This document shows, piece after piece, positions 1,598 through 8,533 of a DNA stretch of 17,548 nucleotides. Below the pieces are notes generated by a model. The model was given only the letters and a program-made list of their open reading frames with translations. It had not been told where the DNA came from and ran no database searches. Position numbers and translations under genes: made by a program. Source of the stretch: a phage; assembly GCA_025289735.1 (NCBI GenBank), contig GCA_025289735.1_4764.3. One strand, 5' to 3'. The stretch's first letter is position 1, and each line of letters opens with the position of its first letter.

Positions 1598-4500
1598 ATG
1601 GCAGATTTAAGCAGAATCCAATTTAAACGCACTAGCACTAAAGGTCGTAAACCTGATGCTAGTACGATGAATCCGGGGGAATTGGCAATCAACCTTGCGG
1701 ATCAATATCTTCTTACTAAAAATGATTCCGGTGCTATTATCAATTTAAGTTGTCCTCCGGTGTATGACCGCGATGTTACAATGGCGGGTAAGGTTAAAGG
1801 AAATAATTATATTTTAAGCAAAACCGCCAACTATCTGGAAGATCAGACAGCGCGAGATCTTAACTACTTTGGTGCTTTCCGTACCAATGGTCTTGATGGT
1901 TTTCTCGAACTAACGCTAAACGTTCCTCATTCTTCCGGTATTCAACATGGTCGAGGATTTACTTTCCAGTATGGACACCTTGGATCGCGTGTAGAAACTT
2001 ATGGTTATAATAAAGAAGGACAAAAAGCATTTAGTTATAAAATGTATCATGAAGGGGATAAACCAACTCCAGGAGAATTGAACGTCTATAGCAAACAAGA
2101 AGTAGATCGGATGTTCCAAAAGACACTTGATTTTGGAATTGAGTCCGGTTGGTTTAAAATCGCTACAGTATATCTACCACAACAATATGGGCGTAGTGCT
2201 AAAATTAGATTGGTTGGTGGTAATGGTTATAATGTAGGACAGACCGGGCAAGCTAATATTATTGAATTGGTTCTGCGTAGCGGGAATGGAAATCCGGTTG
2301 GTGTTGTGTTTAACGCTTATATGACCATCTGGTATATAGACCAGAAGTTTTGTGCTATTCCTACTGGTGGTGACTCTTATGATATATACGGTAGCTATTC
2401 CGGTCATACTGGATTTGTGTTGGCTGAATACCAGACTAGCCCTGACGTTAACCTGACTTTATATGATAACCCACAATTTATAGGAAGTCAATTACCGGAA
2501 GCTGAAACAAAGTTCGATGCTTATACAATCACTTCATTTAGTACTTATCGCAACCACGGGACATTAAATTTTGGTGCTAATTCTCAAGGCCAATATGACA
2601 TTGAGCATTTGAACGAACAACCGACAAATGCTAAAAAGATGTTGCGTCGCTTCCGTAGTTGTGCTCCTGCCACTATCTGGCATGAGACAGTTGATGATAA
2701 CCAGTATCGTCTTGCTACTGGATACGAAGATACAAATCAGGAATTATTGCTGACAGCAACATCCGGGTTACATGTCAAGAAATTAACATTGGATGGCGGT
2801 GTCACTGGAAATTCTGGTATTGATATTCGTCGAGGACCAAACGAAGCAAGCCATTTTAATTTTATGGATTATCGCACTGGACAAGATGTTCGTAATGGCT
2901 GGTTTGGCTTCGGTGATGGTCAGACCAAAGATTTTATTTGGTGGAACGATAACGGTCAAAACTCATTAAATCTTTTAGAAAACGGTGAATTACAGATTTC
3001 TGGTGGTAAAGGCCAGAAAATTGTAATGAATAGCGAAGTTGCATTATCTGAAAATGCTCGTTTGGCTGTTAGAGGTGGTAATTATGGCGTGATATTCCGT
3101 AATGATGGAACGAACTTTCATCTGCTTACTACCGATTTAAAAGATTCTTTTGGAAATTGGAATAATCGTAGACCATTTAGTTATGACTTTGCCGAAGGTG
3201 GATTGGATCTAGGTGGCACAACGACCGCACGTTGTTTGCATCTGGGAATTGATGGTAGTACCCGTATCGAGGATAACTTAGTTTTCAGGGCGGGATCTCG
3301 TCAATCAATGGACTACTTAGAATTTGTTCATTGGGGGGCAAGTAATACCGGACGTAATAACGTTTTAAGTCTTCGTGACTCAAAAGGATTTTTAGCAGAA
3401 TTTGAACGTAAAGGTGATAACACCATTCAAAATACATTCTTCGGAAGATTTAAAGTCAATGGTGGTTCTAACGCTATTACCGTTAATGCTCCTACTGATT
3501 CCGAGTCTGTTTATGTGAAAGGTACTTGTAACGATGTAGATAACTGGTATATAGGTAAAGGTGGTGCTGATAATGCATTAGCCTTTTATAGCTATAAGTC
3601 TAATGCGGCTATTTATCTCACAAATAATGGTGAGGTTTTATTAGCCCCACAAAACACCGCAATTGTTAACGTCAATCGCGACCGTATACACATCAACGGT
3701 ACACAGTGGGTGGCAAATCAGCCACATGGCTGGGGTAATCAGTGGCTGTCCGAAGCGCCTATATTCGTTGATTTTGGTACTGGTATTCCAAATGATACCT
3801 ATATGCCAATCATTAAAGCCCGTAGCCAAATTACTGGCGGTTATGCAACTAAGGCCGATTTTGGTATATATCGTCATGGTACTGATACTTGGGGTGATGC
3901 TGTTATTCGTGTCGGTTCTGCCGAAAGTGGTGATAGTAATCATCCAAACGCAATTTATACTTTCCGGGCAAATGGCGATTTTAAAGCTCCGGCTGGCCTC
4001 CGTGCTGGTGTTAACTTGGGTGTTGGTACTGATCCTGTATTGGGTGGACATTCTATTGCTATCGGTGATAATGACACTGGCTTAGTGTGGGGTGGTGATG
4101 GTCGTATTAACATGTTTGCTAACGGACAGCATATTGCATCATGGGGTACGATGTATCAAGAACACTCAGGACTATGGGGAAGTCATGGTGGTTTGTGGAC
4201 AGAAGTCGATAAAGCGATTATTTCTCATGGTCATCTAGTCCAGGCGAATGACAACTATTCTACATATGTTCGTGACATTTATATCCGTTCGGATATTCGC
4301 GTGAAGAAAGACCTAGTTAAATTTGAAAATGCATCTAAGACACTTTCAAAAATTAACGGTTACAAATATCTTCAAAAGCGCGGGACCAATGAAGACGGTA
4401 GCGAACGTTGGGAAGAAAACGCTGGTTTGATTGCTCAGGAAGTTCAAGCTATTTTGCCGGAATTGGTTGAAGGCGATCCAGATAGCGAAAACCTTCTTCG

Positions 4501-4636
4501 TTTGAACTATAACGGTGTTATTGGTTTAAATACTGCGGCAATCAACGAACACACCGAAGAAATTGCACTTCTTAAAGAAGAAAATAAACTTCTTCGTGAT
4601 CGTCTTGCTGCAATTGAAGCAAAATTATTTGGTTAA
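1598..4636 (+). CDS. 37: Long tail fiber distal subunit, gp37-like (1012 aa), with C-terminal intramolecular chaperone domain
   Basis: ATG at 1598 with AAGGA upstream. N-terminus MADLSRIQFKRTSTKGRKPDASTMNPGELAINLADQYLLTKNDSGAIINL parallels recalled T4 gp37 (MATLKQIQFKR...GELAINL...TKDDSGNIIDL). Length matches T4 gp37 (about 1026 aa). Gly/Asn/Thr-rich fibre composition. C-terminal about 114 aa begin with the S-D-x-R-x-K motif. Confidence 0.9.
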   Translation: MADLSRIQFKRTSTKGRKPDASTMNPGELAINLADQYLLTKNDSGAIINLSCPPVYDRDVTMAGKVKGNNYILSKTANYLEDQTARDLNYFGAFRTNGLDGFLELTLNVPHSSGIQHGRGFTFQYGHLGSRVETYGYNKEGQKAFSYKMYHEGDKPTPGELNVYSKQEVDRMFQKTLDFGIESGWFKIATVYLPQQYGRSAKIRLVGGNGYNVGQTGQANIIELVLRSGNGNPVGVVFNAYMTIWYIDQKFCAIPTGGDSYDIYGSYSGHTGFVLAEYQTSPDVNLTLYDNPQFIGSQLPEAETKFDAYTITSFSTYRNHGTLNFGANSQGQYDIEHLNEQPTNAKKMLRRFRSCAPATIWHETVDDNQYRLATGYEDTNQELLLTATSGLHVKKLTLDGGVTGNSGIDIRRGPNEASHFNFMDYRTGQDVRNGWFGFGDGQTKDFIWWNDNGQNSLNLLENGELQISGGKGQKIVMNSEVALSENARLAVRGGNYGVIFRNDGTNFHLLTTDLKDSFGNWNNRRPFSYDFAEGGLDLGGTTTARCLHLGIDGSTRIEDNLVFRAGSRQSMDYLEFVHWGASNTGRNNVLSLRDSKGFLAEFERKGDNTIQNTFFGRFKVNGGSNAITVNAPTDSESVYVKGTCNDVDNWYIGKGGADNALAFYSYKSNAAIYLTNNGEVLLAPQNTAIVNVNRDRIHINGTQWVANQPHGWGNQWLSEAPIFVDFGTGIPNDTYMPIIKARSQITGGYATKADFGIYRHGTDTWGDAVIRVGSAESGDSNHPNAIYTFRANGDFKAPAGLRAGVNLGVGTDPVLGGHSIAIGDNDTGLVWGGDGRINMFANGQHIASWGTMYQEHSGLWGSHGGLWTEVDKAIISHGHLVQANDNYSTYVRDIYIRSDIRVKKDLVKFENASKTLSKINGYKYLQKRGTNEDGSERWEENAGLIAQEVQAILPELVEGDPDSENLLRLNYNGVIGLNTAAINEHTEEIALLKEENKLLRDRLAAIEAKLFG
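4292..4633 (+). other. Predicted C-terminal intramolecular chaperone domain of gp37 (peptidase S74-like), putative autocleavage after Ser898
   Basis: Sequence ...YIRS|DIRVKKDLVKFENASKTLSKINGYKYL...LLKEENKLLRDRLAAIEAKLFG. The S-D-x-R-x-K start and coiled-coil C-terminal tail match the pattern I recall for endosialidase / T5 pb1-type self-cleaving chaperone domains. Confidence 0.6.
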
Positions 4637-4644
4637 TTTAAATG

Positions 4645-4662
4645 GCGGGGAGAAATCCCCGC
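4645..4662 (+). other. Stable stem-loop (GCGGGGA-GAAA-TCCCCGC) between gp37 and the downstream gene, no U-tract
   Basis: 7-bp GC-rich stem with a GNRA-type GAAA tetraloop 9 nt after the gp37 stop. Followed by TAAGGATCTT (the RBS of the next gene) rather than a T-run, so more likely an RNA stability or processing element than a terminator. Confidence 0.5.
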
Positions 4663-4674
4663 TAAGGATCTTAA

Positions 4675-4971
4675 ATGGGCTATTGGGTAAGTAATGAACA
4701 AGACACTAAAATAGATGCTGTAAAATGGCATGTTTTTGATATTCCTAATGGATATGTTCCCGGTCGTGCTGGTGTTGCCGTTTTGCGGCATACCGCTCGT
4801 GATGGTTGGGGCGATATGCATATTTCCGTTGACGGTGTGGTCGCCGCGCGTCGTCGTGGTGGTGGGGATTGGGGATTTACGGTTAATGCGTTTGTTCCTG
4901 CTGGATGTACTGTCACCTTTGGTCATGGGGGTGTCGGTGGTATTGAATACTTTAAATTTATGGAGTTTTAA
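4675..4971 (+). CDS. Small Gly/Trp-rich protein, paralog A of a tandem triplet (98 aa)
   Basis: ATG with AAGGA 6 nt upstream. Shares MGYWV...FDIPNG...GGGD...G-T-T pattern with the two downstream ORFs. Confidence 0.65.
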   Translation: MGYWVSNEQDTKIDAVKWHVFDIPNGYVPGRAGVAVLRHTARDGWGDMHISVDGVVAARRRGGGDWGFTVNAFVPAGCTVTFGHGGVGGIEYFKFMEF

Positions 4972-4973
4972 TT

Positions 4974-5279
4974 ATGGCTGGTTGGGTTGCTGGAAGAATG
5001 GCTAATGCTATTAGCATTTATGCTAATGGCGGCTGGTTTGGTATCCCTAATGGTTGGGTTACTGATTCATGCGGTATTGTGTCTGTTCATGCCGAAGCCG
5101 TTGGCGGTGGAGGTGACTTGGACGCCGAATTATATGTAAACGGTACTCTAGAATCAGGTCATCACGCTGGTAATGCCGGAAGTTGGGGAGCTAGTTCTTT
5201 AGTTGGTGTTGGTGCTACTGTCAGTTTTAGCATTGGTAAAGGAAGTTTAAACCACTTCCAATTTAGGAGAATGCATTAA
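4974..5279 (+). CDS. Small Gly/Trp-rich protein, paralog B of a tandem triplet (101 aa)
   Basis: ATG 2 nt after the stop of paralog A, GGAG 8 nt upstream. Motifs GWFGIPNGW and GGGGD shared with paralogs A and C. Confidence 0.65.
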   Translation: MAGWVAGRMANAISIYANGGWFGIPNGWVTDSCGIVSVHAEAVGGGGDLDAELYVNGTLESGHHAGNAGSWGASSLVGVGATVSFSIGKGSLNHFQFRRMH

Positions 5280-5578
5280 TGGGATATTGGGTGTATGGCG
5301 TTTTAGACAATAAAGCCGGTAAAGCGAATCAGGGATGGTTTGATATTCCTAACGGTTGGACAGCCGACGCTTTCGGTACGGTTTCATTTGGTGCTCATTC
5401 TTCTGGTGGTGGTGGTGACTCAGAATTGCTTTTGCATGGCTTTTGTGTGTCTGGAAGTCATAAGGGTCATGATTGGGGACAGATCCATTCTTGTATTGTG
5501 CCGCAGGGAGTAACGATCACGGTAACTACAAACAGGGGCATTTCCCATCTTCGTTATAGACGCCAGAGCAACCGTTAA
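5279..5578 (+). CDS. Small Gly/Trp-rich protein, paralog C of a tandem triplet (99 aa)
   Basis: Start overlaps the stop of paralog B (TAATG). AGGAGA 8 nt upstream. Motifs MGYWV, GWFDIPNGW, GGGGD. Confidence 0.65.
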   Translation: MGYWVYGVLDNKAGKANQGWFDIPNGWTADAFGTVSFGAHSSGGGGDSELLLHGFCVSGSHKGHDWGQIHSCIVPQGVTITVTTNRGISHLRYRRQSNR

Positions 5579-5629
5579 AAAGAATTAAGGAAACCTCCCA
5601 CGGAAGGGAACTACTAAGGAGAAACGGCT

Positions 5630-5869
5630 ATGGTCTATAATATCGTCATTGGTGCTTTGTCTAATTTCGGAATGAAACTATTGTCAAAGTTAATTAGTGA
5701 AAAGATGCTCACTAAAATCTTCTTCTATTGCGCTCGTCGTCTTGCGGCTTATACCAATACGCCAATTGATGATCGTTTTGTGGAAGAACTTTATAAGGAG
5801 TTTAATAAAGATCAGTTAGAAGATAGCAACGAGCAAAATAAAAATAGTGATAGTCAAGTACCTAAATAA
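5630..5869 (+). CDS. Hypothetical protein (79 aa) between the fibre module and the holin
   Basis: ATG with AAGGAG 8 nt upstream. Hydrophobic/amphipathic N-terminus and acidic, low-complexity C-terminus. No family recognised. Confidence 0.5.
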   Translation: MVYNIVIGALSNFGMKLLSKLISEKMLTKIFFYCARRLAAYTNTPIDDRFVEELYKEFNKDQLEDSNEQNKNSDSQVPK

Positions 5870-5902
5870 GAGTACACTGTCATAGTTATCTTAGGGCATT
5901 AT

Positions 5903-6559
5903 ATGCAAGTTTCTGAAAAAGGGAAAGACTTTGCTATCTCAAATGTCCTGCGCGCTATTTTCACAACTAAAAGCACGGAGTTGCTCGTACTTCGTGTTTT
6001 TGCTGCCGTCGTGTTGTCCATATTAGCATTTGTCGTTTATAGTAAAAACGAGTTATTTGCCTTGTATAAAGAGACTCGTTATGAGACTTATGCTCACGTT
6101 CTCCAGGTAGAGAAAGACCGCAATTTTGATAATGCAGCACAGGAGCAGTTACAGATAGTTCATGTGTCGGCTGATGCCGATTTTTCTGCTGTTTTTAGTT
6201 TTCGTCCGAAAAACCTAAACTATTTTGTTGATTTGGTGGCATATGAAGGAAAGCTACCGCATACAATCGATGAAAAAAATTTAGGTGGATTCCCTATCAA
6301 TAAAACGAGTGAAGAATATCGTAGGCATCTTTTAGGTAAATCATATTTTACCGATAAAGATTTCCAGTATATTCCATCAAGAGAAAAGAAATTAGAGAGT
6401 ATCGATATAGGGTTTATGTATTCTTGCCCTATATTCAATCTCGATAATGTCTATTCTGGTAGTATCGCCATTGCGTGGAAGAATAAACCGGATATTGACA
6501 TTGAGAATTTAGATACTCTTTGCAATCAATCTGCCAGAATCCTCGGAAGGATTAGATAA
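5903..6559 (+). CDS. t: Holin, T4 t-type (218 aa)
   Basis: Same length as T4 holin T. Single TMD (LVLRVFAAVVLSILAFVVY) after a short N-terminal region, then a large C-terminal domain. Several blocks match my recollection of T4 T: EQLQIVH, ADFSAVxSFRPKNLNYFVD, AYEGKLP, MYSCPxFNLDNxYxG, ARILGR. Confidence 0.9.
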   Translation: MQVSEKGKDFAISNVLRAIFTTKSTELLVLRVFAAVVLSILAFVVYSKNELFALYKETRYETYAHVLQVEKDRNFDNAAQEQLQIVHVSADADFSAVFSFRPKNLNYFVDLVAYEGKLPHTIDEKNLGGFPINKTSEEYRRHLLGKSYFTDKDFQYIPSREKKLESIDIGFMYSCPIFNLDNVYSGSIAIAWKNKPDIDIENLDTLCNQSARILGRIR

Positions 6560-6564
6560 CTTAA

Positions 6565-6597
6565 AGGGGAAGCCTTTCGGCCTCCCCTTCTTTTTAT
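6565..6597 (+). terminator. Rho-independent terminator after holin t
   Basis: 10-bp stem AGGGGAAGCC / GGCCTCCCCT (one mismatch), loop TTTC, followed by TCTTTTTA. Confidence 0.7.
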
Positions 6598-6842
6598 TGG
6601 AGCATAGAAGCCCCTGAATCACATTTTGACGCTGTATGATGAAAACAGGTAGCGTACCAGTCATCGGCTTGTTTGTCTTCGTCAGAAAACGCGTAATTGC
6701 GTTGTATGCCGTTTTCTACTTTGACCAGTGCAATAGCTGTTTCTGGAAGATCAATCAATCGGACAAAATCACCGTCTTCCCACTCCACACGGGCAATATC
6801 ATAGCCCATCTCAAAGTATACAATCGCTTGTTCTAATTTCAT
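6594..6842 (-). CDS. Hypothetical early protein (82 aa)
   Basis: ATG overlaps the upstream stop (ATGA). Last gene of the minus-strand array, ending at the t terminator. Confidence 0.5.
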   Translation of the reverse strand: MKLEQAIVYFEMGYDIARVEWEDGDFVRLIDLPETAIALVKVENGIQRNYAFSDEDKQADDWYATCFHHTASKCDSGASMLQ

Positions 6843-7162
6843 TCTGGAAACTTCCCGTAAACATTCTCTGCCAGCTTACGTGCATCTTTTACAATATCTT
6901 TCATGTAATGACTATAATTTTTAGCTAGATCAATGATGCAATCAACAAAGAAGTAATAGCGTCGCAGTGCTACCAGCTCAACATCTTCAAGATGACCATT
7001 TTCTCCAATCGCTGAAATATGTTTAAATTCCTTTCGGATCGCGTCCATCGCTACATTAACTTCTTTTATAATATCTTTCGTATTATATGCACCTCGACTA
7101 ATCAAAATTTTGGTTAGGTCTTCTGCTTTTTCGTGAAAGTTGTCAATTTCAAACTCGATCAT
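6839..7162 (-). CDS. Hypothetical early protein (107 aa), paralog of 7277..7609
   Basis: Track start at 7168 is a GTG lying inside the SD GAGGTGA. ATG at 7160..7162 with that SD 5 nt upstream is the likelier start. C-terminus ...ARKLAENVYGKFPE resembles the neighbour's ...ARIMTENIFGKF. Confidence 0.55.
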   Translation of the reverse strand: MIEFEIDNFHEKAEDLTKILISRGAYNTKDIIKEVNVAMDAIRKEFKHISAIGENGHLEDVELVALRRYYFFVDCIIDLAKNYSHYMKDIVKDARKLAENVYGKFPE

Positions 7163-7276
7163 AATCACCTCTCATGGTTTAACGCTGTTGTGTCAACATT
7201 TTTTCGTGGTTTGCTAATTCTATACATTGTAATAGCATAACCAGTGCAATTTTCAATGATTCATCATCTTTCATAA

Positions 7277-7609
7277 TCAAAATTTACCGAAAATATTCTC
7301 TGTCATAATTCTTGCTTCGTCGATTATTTTCGTCATGTTCATGGTGTAGTTATGATCATTTAGTGCCTTAATAACAACGAGCAAGGAATCTAAAAACACT
7401 CGATACCGTGTATATTCTACGCTATTTGTGAATACCGATGTTTTCTCGACTTTATCGATCAGATAGCCTAAAACCGATAGCGCCTCGTTTACTTCCCTTG
7501 TTACTTTATCGGCGCTAAAAAGCACCGGATAAAGGCGCGGTGTGATTAACCGCGCTGCCTCTTTCAATTCGGTCGCTTTCCATGATTCATATTTGTCATA
7601 GTTAAACAT
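7277..7609 (-). CDS. Hypothetical early protein (110 aa), paralog of 6839..7162
   Basis: ATG with AAGGAGA 8 nt upstream. Shared blocks EVN-A, RY--F-D, ARxxxENxxGKF with the downstream neighbour. Confidence 0.55.
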   Translation of the reverse strand: MFNYDKYESWKATELKEAARLITPRLYPVLFSADKVTREVNEALSVLGYLIDKVEKTSVFTNSVEYTRYRVFLDSLLVVIKALNDHNYTMNMTKIIDEARIMTENIFGKF

Positions 7610-7621
7610 TGTATAATCTCC

Positions 7622-7954
7622 TTACAGATGAAAACCTGTTACAATCACCGCATCGATCATACCGCTAGGAATAAACGGTTCACCCTCTTTTATTTCAACT
7701 TTGAATTGATGCCATTTCGCTAATACTTCTTCCGGTACACCCAGCGATTCGGCGTCTGCTTTAGTTTCATCCATAATCCAACTAGGCTGCATGAGAGCAT
7801 AGTTTACATAGTCCATTTCTGGGGTCATGTCATCAATGTTAATATATTTGCAGTTGACGCGTTTCAGAATTTCAAATTCTTTATTATCAACCTGTACCAT
7901 GTACAATTCGGTAGTTTCTGGAATCAGTTCCCATACAATCAGTACATTTTTCAT
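7622..7954 (-). CDS. Hypothetical early protein (110 aa)
   Basis: ATG with GAGGTGA upstream, overlapping the stop of the preceding gene. Tight operon packing. Confidence 0.55.
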   Translation of the reverse strand: MKNVLIVWELIPETTELYMVQVDNKEFEILKRVNCKYINIDDMTPEMDYVNYALMQPSWIMDETKADAESLGVPEEVLAKWHQFKVEIKEGEPFIPSGMIDAVIVTGFHL

Positions 7955-7962
7955 AGTTCACC

Positions 7963-8331
7963 TCACTTAACAAAGATTTTCTTTAATGCTTTCAGGATCG
8001 TTGCTTCCGGCGCTTCTTCCGGTGGAGGAAGCAATTCTACCACTTCCTCTTCCAACTCGATATAGTCTACCAGATATTCTACATAGAATGCAAGTGCTTC
8101 CATGAAATTAGATGCTACATCCGATTCACCACACGCGCCTACATGCATTGTATAAACATCACTGCGATCAAGTTTGTGGATACTGCCTAGATAGTTTCGG
8201 TTATACCAGACTTCCCACACTTTCAGCTTTCCGGTTTTGGTTGCTGTTTTATAATCGGTTTCGTAGTGGTGCAATTGACGTTGCAGATCATTGATAATAA
8301 CACATTTTTCGTAATTGTTTTGAATTTCCAT
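7963..8331 (-). CDS. Hypothetical early protein (122 aa), acidic Pro-rich C-terminus
   Basis: ATG with GAGGAT upstream. C-terminus ELEEEVVELLPPPEEAPEA. Confidence 0.55.
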   Translation of the reverse strand: MEIQNNYEKCVIINDLQRQLHHYETDYKTATKTGKLKVWEVWYNRNYLGSIHKLDRSDVYTMHVGACGESDVASNFMEALAFYVEYLVDYIELEEEVVELLPPPEEAPEATILKALKKIFVK

Positions 8332-8341
8332 GATGTAATCC

Positions 8342-8533
8342 TCACTTATCGTTAAGAAGATCTAAAACTTTCTGTCGTACTTTGTCAATATTAGTTGATT
8401 CAAAAACTGTACGGTATCCCCAGCTTTGACCGTATGAGCGGTTGCAATCTCCATATCCCCATTGTTCAACCTGATAGTATTCAAGGAATGGATGCTGCCG
8501 AACTATGATACCATCGCGGTTAAAAATTACCAT
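8342..8533 (-). CDS. Hypothetical early protein (63 aa)
   Basis: ATG with GAGGA 7 nt upstream. Trp/Tyr/Gly-rich small protein. Confidence 0.45.
   Translation of the reverse strand: MVIFNRDGIIVRQHPFLEYYQVEQWGYGDCNRSYGQSWGYRTVFESTNIDKVRQKVLDLLNDK

Follow-up and report, generated by a model that had tools for sequence, protein, structure and literature searches.

Three paralogous genes behind a chaperone-ended gp37: a candidate fibre-tip cassette in an RB49-like coliphage

The stretch of phage DNA analysed here (17,548 nucleotides (nt), contig GCA_025289735.1_4764.3 of NCBI GenBank assembly GCA_025289735.1; hereafter the window) encodes gp37, the distal subunit of the long tail fibre, followed by three small paralogous open reading frames (ORFs A, B and C, together the trio) in the gene-38 slot, all on the plus strand. 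The best explanation of this locus as a whole, with a probability of roughly 0.55, is that an S74-type chaperone domain at the C-terminus of gp37 would cut itself off and that A, B and C would then cap the fibre in the place of the adhesin gp38. That the trio works with the fibre tip is probable; that it is specifically a 1:1:1 heterotrimeric adhesin is a more tentative proposal. Judged from DNA identity, the source is an RB49-like coliphage (genus Krischvirus, family Straboviridae), with about 80% of the window aligning with such phages at 94-97%, and the part of the window that matches them worst is the distal long-tail-fibre module.

A conserved three-gene set in the gene-38 slot

The gp37 gene (positions 1598-4636; 1012 residues, a 111.8 kDa precursor; phrog_1699, 5.8e-163) is followed by ORF A (4675-4971, 98 residues), ORF B (4974-5279, 101 residues) and ORF C (5279-5578, 99 residues). 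An earlier reading of the window from its letters alone (the sequence-only reading) had held that a chaperone domain on gp37 frees the adjacent gene-38 position; this was mistaken, the slot being filled by three conserved paralogous genes. The three ORFs are 26-30% identical to one another and share motifs such as F-x-IPNG. Each is preceded by a ribosome-binding site, with ORF B starting 2 nt past the stop codon of ORF A and the start of ORF C overlapping the stop codon of ORF B. Eleven computable comparisons of nonsynonymous with synonymous substitution (dN/dS) gave ratios of 0.05-0.43, indicating purifying selection on A, B and C (0.05-0.22 for ORF B), and ORF B shows only 26-30% identity to A and C, compared with at least 46% to the B genes of other loci.

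No Pfam match was obtained for the trio even at expectation values (E) up to 10, nor any match in NCBIfam or PADLOC, and the only PHROGs match was that of ORF A to a family of unknown function (7e-4); with Pfam, NCBIfam and PADLOC all empty, nothing points to defence genes or to proteins of known domain. Likewise, no similarity to Tfa, gp38 or other fibre chaperone families was found in Pfam, NCBIfam and PHROGs, and tblastn gave no similarity to either gp38 type. A frameshifted gp38 pseudogene is ruled out by this lack of gp38 similarity, together with the mutual paralogy, the ribosome-binding sites and the purifying selection. No description of the trio was found in open-access papers.

A search of 5.8 billion protein clusters returned 39 relatives of the trio, all of about 100 residues, which came from metagenomes and from assemblies of Escherichia coli, Shigella and Salmonella. 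Searched without filters, 1.84 billion representative proteins yielded about 15 family clusters at 50% identity, and a contig scan with one genome per species contained none. The family lives in strain-specific prophages and phages. In all 26 loci that hold them, its members follow, at a distance of 10-40 nt, an ORF with a C-terminal chaperone domain, and exactly three members are present, in the order A-B-C, in 23 of these; the three incomplete loci are KFS-EC (a frameshifted A/C hybrid), L015 (a truncated B) and L029 (at a contig end). In siphovirus-type prophages of E. coli and Salmonella, a fibre of 1026-1228 residues ending in Peptidase_S74 precedes exactly three members, with tape measure, distal tail protein and J-like tip genes nearby. 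The S74-ended fibre and trio are likewise found in nine IMG/VR contigs, and the metagenome contigs with the most divergent members have the same arrangement. Two Logan metagenome contigs (L027, positions 106-2959, and L028) encode a 615-residue fibre with a T7-type N-terminal domain (PF03906) and an S74 end, followed by a divergent trio of 98, 122 and 100 residues, so that the set also occurs behind a T7-type fibre. Its hosts comprise a myovirus type (the window and G2248), siphovirus-like prophages and a fibre with a T7-type N-terminal domain.

Between loci, identity is at least 50% for A with A, at least 46% for B with B and at least 59% for C with C, and 22-42% between different positions; the 76 unique family sequences divide into 19 A, 28 B and 29 C. 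By sequence comparison, the three positions are orthologous across loci, one-to-one and in fixed order.

The chaperone domain of gp37 and its probable cut site

The C-terminal 115 residues of gp37 (residues 898-1012, 12.9 kDa; positions 4289-4633) are, on profile and alignment evidence, almost certainly an S74 intramolecular chaperone domain. Besides Gp34_trimer and gp37_trimer, Pfam detects Peptidase_S74 (PF13884) in gp37, at residues 898-957 and over positions 1-57 of the 58-position profile (E=5.1e-12, 46.3 bits, curated cut-off 22), which bears out the S74-type domain claimed in the sequence-only reading. The span given there, 4289-4636, is also exact, corresponding to residues 898-1012 and the stop codon: the Ser898 codon (TCG) occupies 4289-4291, and the domain sits at the extreme C-terminus of gp37, ending at the stop codon (4634-4636). 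Among solved structures, the best match is to the gp37 C-terminus of Salmonella phage S16, chain A of 6F45 (residues 814-1002, E=1.1e-43; E=4.4e-33 for the last 135 residues of gp37 alone), an entry described as the gp37-gp38 complex (PMC9569957). A profile built from seven fibre C-termini matched, in the PDB, S16 gp37, the MYRF self-cleaving domain 7DC3 (E=1.9e-9) and the tail fibre 8JOV (E=1.2e-6). A weak match (E=0.084) was to 3GUD, the chaperone domain of the GA-1 neck appendage, in which the chain begins SDERHK; the same search returned no match to 3GW6 or 4UW8, which are of the K1F endosialidase and T5 pb1 type.

Four residues (S898, D899, R901 and K903) are invariant in the seven-sequence alignment, in which the C-termini are only 28-36% identical to the window sequence, except that of G2248 at 93%. 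The SDIRVK segment aligns with SDRRIK of S16, SDERHK of GA-1 (3GUD) and the corresponding positions of MYRF. The Ser-Lys dyad can thus be placed at S898 and K903 (codon 4304-4306), with Lys at Ser+5 as in the catalytic pair Ser1264/Lys1269 of T5 pb1 (PMC4690869). The domains of T5 pb1 and the K1F endosialidase (MEROPS S74) resemble that of the window in Pfam family, in the Ser and Lys(+5) pair, in a coiled-coil core (putative in the window) and in the probable departure of the Ser with the domain; they differ in that direct sequence similarity was not detected, and T5 also differs in that its cleaved tip itself binds the receptor. The last 30 residues of gp37 (983-1012, positions 4544-4633; NEHTEEIALLKEENKLLRDRLAAIEAKLFG) read by eye as a heptad-like helix; in T5, a trimeric coiled coil forms the centre of the chaperone domain (PMC4690869). 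Taken on these resemblances, the gp37 domain very probably cleaves itself in vivo.

The catalytic Ser departs with the chaperone domain in T5 and K1F (PMC4690869), and S16 gp37, which self-cleaves, is cut ahead of its SD motif (DLNVS^SDRRIKK; PMC7917993); by analogy, the scissile bond in the window gp37 is therefore likely that between R897 and S898, before Ser898. The sequence-only reading had recognised the start motif S-D-I-R-V-K-K correctly, but its proposed cut between S and D is less likely by the same comparison. Cleavage before Ser898 would release 115 residues (12.9 kDa) and leave a mature gp37 with a computed mass of 98.9 kDa. The S16-like distal tip of this mature protein (residues 814-897, positions 4037-4288), which aligns with residues 22 to about 95 of 6F45_A and carries a 12-residue insertion relative to S16, is the presumed docking platform. 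It ends in ...VRDIYIR. The DIYIR^SD at this point corresponds to DVYIR^SD in the fPS phages, where, as in S16, gp38 docks on the surface formed by the terminal D[VI]YIR strand (PMC7917993). The residue at position -6 (C or F) was tried as a discriminator between trio and gp38 tips and was refuted by the T7-like trio locus, which has F.

Predicted fold, proposed fibre cap and alternative explanations

AlphaFold2 models of A and C, based on a 37-sequence alignment, reached a mean predicted local distance difference test score of 84.3 and 83.8, respectively, and consist of a short N-terminal helix (residues 2-12, at lower confidence) and a beta sandwich of 6-7 strands. Foldseek searches against viral models returned phage tail fibre proteins and viral C1q-domain proteins. 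The predicted trio fold would be a small C1q/TNF-like jelly roll, a resemblance of fold that does not establish homology. As modelled, it would resemble the C1q head, lymphotoxin alpha1-beta2, BclA and PRD1 P5, which are trimeric ligand-binding knobs at fibre ends and of which C1q A/B/C and lymphotoxin alpha1-beta2 are heterotrimers. These knobs have no sequence similarity to the trio (about 10% identity), have a core of about 130 residues compared with about 85, and are fused to a stalk, whereas the trio proteins are free-standing. Three consecutive paralogues have also been proposed to build a heterotrimeric receptor-binding structure in the virophage DSLV2 and in Synechococcus phage tail proteins (PMC12724248), although these are fibre-forming gp37-like chains and not small knobs after a homotrimeric, chaperone-ended fibre.

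These features would be consistent with a mechanism in three steps. In the first, which is well supported, residues 898-1012 would nucleate trimerisation of the fibre from its C-terminal end. In the second, drawn from the homologues, Ser898 and Lys903 of the folded tip would cut between R897 and S898, and the 12.9 kDa domain would leave, exposing a flat tip of three ...DIYIR strands. In the third, suggested by the genomic association and the predicted fold, A, B and C would cap this tip where T2, S16 and RB49 use a single gp38: one copy of each protein would form a heterotrimeric knob, whose three N-terminal helices dock on the gp37 tip and whose surface binds the receptor, replacing gp38. We put it at somewhat under even odds that such a 1:1:1 C1q/TNF-like knob snaps onto the cleaved tip as a true receptor-binding adhesin, which would make the locus an undescribed, self-contained host-range cassette. 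A parallel was considered between the N-terminal Trp (W4) of each trio protein and the three Trp 'prongs' in the attachment domain of gp38; W4 is near-invariant in close members of the family and L, M or Q in divergent ones, and the parallel is kept as a weak idea at most.

The trio might instead consist of Tfa-like assembly helpers, or have some other intracellular role, with the cleaved gp37 tip itself binding the receptor in the manner of T5 pb1. Loss of the chaperone domain unmasks the receptor site in T5 without any added adhesin (PMC4690869), genes directly after fibre genes are often chaperones (PMC7289586), and the cryo-electron microscopy map of one S74-type fibre lacks adhesin density (PMC12143355). 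However, the fibre of the window already brings a chaperone domain of its own, nothing in the trio resembles the chaperone families searched, and the fold predicted for the trio occurs in distal knobs and ligand-binding trimers rather than in known fibre chaperones. The gp37 tip is moreover of the S16/fPS docking type, and an intact trio and a gp38 were never found in one Krischvirus, a mutual exclusion that fits the replacement of an adhesin and not of a chaperone. On this evidence, the T5-like explanation is unlikely.

It is similarly doubtful that A, B and C are three alternative adhesins, each a homotrimer or monomer, that compete for the gp37 tip and give a virion up to three specificities. 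Domains of the C1q/TNF type are commonly homotrimeric, and three tips would widen the host range, a known theme among phage receptor-binding proteins. Yet interchangeable adhesins would be expected to drift in copy number, whereas in all 23 complete loci A, B and C each occur once and in unchanged order, a fixed set that persists though the orthologues have diverged to 46-60% identity. The loci that have lost a member look decayed (the frameshift in KFS-EC and the truncation in L015), and the tight translational coupling of the three genes fits equimolar production. The strict 1:1:1 orthologous positions in every complete locus are the main reason for preferring a heterotrimer over interchangeable adhesins.

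The distribution of gp38 in Krischvirus bears on a third alternative, in which the RB49 model holds unchanged: a classical gp38 encoded about 55 kb away, outside the window, would cap the cleaved tip, and the trio would be accessory or unrelated cargo. Three layouts were found in the genus. RB49, Phi1, JSE and many others have an empty slot and a gp38 displaced by about 55 kb; gp38 is adjacent to gp37 in Skers, MIZ4, kvi and KMB43, and by annotation in G2494 and G5211; and the trio is adjacent in G2248, UPWr_E1, G37-3 and the window. Genes of the slot in the first three of these trio phages are annotated as hypothetical, and the DNA of the slot is 95% (G2248), 91% (UPWr_E1) and 84% (G37-3) identical to that of the window. 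The downstream ORFs of the window hold no Pfam GP38 (PF05268) or Gp38_N (PF21721) domain, and two gp38 queries gave no tblastn match in the window.

Several observations would be consistent with a displaced gp38 in the window phage. The displaced locus is intact in 44 of 86 matched Krischvirus records, host-range mutations of RB49 map to gp38 (PMC9569957), the window covers 17.5 kb only, and the genome of KFS-EC (NC_055757.1) holds gp38 and trio-derived DNA together. Against this, in none of the phages with matching slots (G2248, UPWr_E1 and G37-3) does the displaced locus hold gp38; for UPWr_E1 and G37-3 the check covered both gp38 positions known in the genus, and G2248 lacks the gene across its 170,678 bp with the same gp38 queries. 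The same query finds RB49-type gp38 at E=2e-24, so the sensitivity of the search was adequate for the negative result in G2248, which has a clean gap where Phi1 and RB49 carry gp38, between flanks that are 95-97% identical. In KFS-EC, where the displaced gp38 is kept (100% coverage), the trio is only a decayed, frameshifted hybrid: a 107-residue ORF (L002, 4899-5328) joins about the first 88 residues of A to C from GGGGDSELL onwards, apparently at Gly-rich motifs; B is deleted, and what remains of C (5155-5328) has lost the frame. None of the 25 trio-carrying loci holds a gp38, including the trios that follow S74-ended fibres in prophages and in the T7-like contig. The unchanged RB49 model is improbable in view of these absences. 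A precedent for a non-canonical adhesin in the slot is given by the alternative gp38 of the RB43 type (174 residues), whose N-terminus is gp38-like and whose C-terminal specificity domain is unrelated (Trojet 2011, PMC3157838), whereas the trio shows no gp38 similarity.

That the S74-like domain is a degenerate, non-cleaving remnant and that full-length gp37 stays in the virion can be all but dismissed, given the four residues that are invariant among C-termini of 28-36% identity (93% for G2248), the Pfam match across the whole S74 model and the self-cleavage of the close homologue S16 gp37 (PMC7917993).

Other points weigh against the capping of a cleaved tip by A, B and C as set out above. 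Matches to jelly rolls that share about 10% identity say little about function, and the heterotrimer is proposed from genomic association and a predicted monomer fold. The N-terminal W4 is not conserved in divergent members, and the motif before the cut fails to separate the two kinds of fibre, D[VI]YIR being present in gp38-bearing and trio-bearing fibres alike. KFS-EC is a single case, the genome-wide absence of gp38 comes from one genome (G2248), and a gp38 displaced as in RB49 could lie elsewhere in the same phage, beyond the 17.5 kb of the window. The family is also tiny (about 15 clusters), so that few independent lineages were sampled.

Fibre assembly and the two proteins called gp38

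The T4 gp37 lacks an S74-type domain and depends on the chaperones gp38 and gp57 (Trojet 2011, PMC3157838), and the contrast with T4 drawn in the sequence-only reading is valid: with the domain present in the window gp37 and absent from that of T4, the two fibres differ in their route of assembly. Full-length window gp37 matched S16 gp37, the Mu-like fibre S and T4 gp34 fragments in the PDB, and the T4 gp37 needle tip (2XGF) was not matched. The further claim that the domain stands instead of gp38 is right for one meaning of that name only. The name 'gp38' covers two unrelated proteins, the T4 chaperone and the adhesin of T2, T6, S16 and RB49; the claim holds for the chaperone but fails for the T2-type adhesin, which coexists with an S74-ended gp37.

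The S74 domain ends gp37 in nine of nine Krischvirus tested (the window, RB49, KFS-EC, Skers, G2248, MIZ4, kvi and KMB43 directly, and Phi1-type by homology), whether gp38 is adjacent, about 55 kb away or absent: in Skers, MIZ4, kvi and KMB43 the S74-ended gp37 is followed by a protein with Pfam GP38 and Gp38_N, and in RB49, Phi1 and KFS-EC it goes with a displaced gp38. The domain alone therefore does not imply independence from gp38. RB49 and most T-even-like phages have been reported to carry the S74 domain on gp37, with the gp38 adhesin attaching after cleavage (PMC9569957), the cleavage of T2 and T6 gp37 and subsequent capping by gp38 have been described (Trojet 2011, PMC3157838), and S16 is listed beside K1F and T5 as a carrier of such domains in other papers. 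The chaperone domain on gp37 is thus already published for RB49-like and T2-like phages and is not new; per se it changes nothing and puts the fibre in the common T2/S16/RB49 class.

The tip of S16 and T2/T6 (6F45) is a close counterpart of that in the window, with homology over gp37 residues 814-1002, the same order of tip, x^SD..[KR]K cut site and helical-tailed chaperone domain, and the same expected sequence of folding, cleavage and exposure of a docking platform. It differs in its single, polyglycine-rich gp38 adhesin of about 260 residues, where the window has three proteins of about 100 residues with a predicted jelly-roll fold. On balance, we regard the trio as a variation on the known design of a cleaved gp37 tip with a separate adhesin, and the three-gene set as the more interesting content of the locus.

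Mobility of the cassette

Comparison with a siphovirus-like E. coli prophage (L010, 4139-7908) revealed one 3773-nt block of 88.9% identity (blastn) over window positions 1820-5579. Its left edge lies about 75 codons into gp37 and its right edge coincides exactly with the ORF C stop codon, and similarity to RB49 resumes at position 5565. Since the similarity forms a single block, the exchanged unit comprises the fibre shaft, the tip, the chaperone domain and A-B-C; these identities point to the shaft, chaperone domain and trio as one portable cassette, exchanged between virulent T4-like phages and temperate siphoviruses. The guanine-cytosine content is 46.0% in the trio (4675-5578), 42.5% in the gp37 tip and chaperone domain and about 40% elsewhere in the window, a contrast consistent with recent import from enterobacterial prophage DNA. 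None of the phage records in the collection searched covered at least 80% of the window gp37 gene.

RB49 and other Krischvirus share the backbone of the window outside the fibre module (94-97% DNA identity), including the same 79-residue ORF and holin to the right. RB49 differs in its empty gene-38 slot and in a gp38 about 55 kb away where the window has the trio, and in that gp37 from codon 75 and the trio form, in the window, a module common to E. coli prophages. The gp37 gene is itself a mosaic: among the window, G2248, KFS-EC, RB49 and Skers, the DNA for the first ~170 residues is 93-96% identical across the genus, and the middle matches that of MIZ4 and KFS-EC at about 85%. Two unrelated types of tip and chaperone domain exist, one S16-like with SDIRVKK and one with SDxRLKIN, and both occur with the trio.

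Possible implications for host range

At present, gp38 is the basis for predicting and engineering the host range of T-even-like therapeutic coliphages, and receptor-prediction models have been reported to fail in genomes without a gp38 homologue (bioRxiv 10.64898/2026.04.02.716166). G2248, G37-3, UPWr_E1 (a member of a poultry phage cocktail) and the window phage would exemplify such genomes. If the trio is the adhesin, A, B and C would be the genes whose sequencing, modelling and exchange matter in these phages. It would then be a rare instance of a symmetric fibre bearing an asymmetric, heterotrimeric receptor-binding tip, encoded on a cassette that virulent and temperate phages have in common. 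Such a cassette would move between contractile-tailed, long-tailed and short-tailed enterobacterial phages and, in T4-like phages, would be an alternative to the monomeric gp38 adhesin.

Expression signals, neighbouring genes and minor observations

The T4 late promoter TATAAATA was not found in the window, and no promoter close to the trio emerged from a sigma-70 scan. A GC-rich hairpin of nine base pairs (4643-4664; GGCGGGGAG/aaat/CCCCGC), with a folding energy of -17.1 kcal/mol (z=-3.2 against shuffled sequence) and no U-run on the plus strand, separates gp37 from ORF A. Its role may be attenuation or RNA stabilisation; speculatively, it could lower expression of the trio relative to gp37, which would fit three gp37 chains per knob. 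A scan of the minus strand also flags the hairpin as terminator-like, and G2248 has a putative terminator annotated at the corresponding site.

Upstream of gp37, the ORF at 37-1527 encodes a gp36-like distal connector of the long tail fibre (496 residues), with a full-length match to phrog_16472, a match to phrog_1425 ('hinge connector of long tail fiber', 1.8e-54) and a borderline Pfam Phage_T4_gp36 match (E=7e-6, residues 57-153). This is more than twice the ~220 residues quoted for T4-type gp36, and the 496-residue form is also kept in RB49, KFS-EC, Skers and G2248. To the right of the trio, the variable slot is bordered by the 79-residue ORF (5630-5869; phrog_402, 7e-20), the equivalent of ORF252/Dc5 of RB49, where ORF252 overlaps 'Dc5'. 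It is 95-99% identical at the DNA level in all Krischvirus records and stands directly after gp37, gp38 or the trio. The holin gene t (5903-6559; Pfam Phage_holin_T, 7.9e-61) follows as the right-hand landmark of the T4-type g37-g38-t order.

A hidden Markov model of the chaperone domain gave a second, partial match near the N-terminus of the prophage fibres of L005-L021 (about residues 110-240, the alignments ending at residues 113-237), which may be a coiled-coil segment resembling the helical tail of the domain. In the E. coli prophages of L009-L012 (about 2541-8432), the fibre and trio lie between two genes of the major-tail-protein family (277 and 156 residues, phrog_158), upstream of the tail chaperone and tape measure, an unusual place for a side-fibre module.

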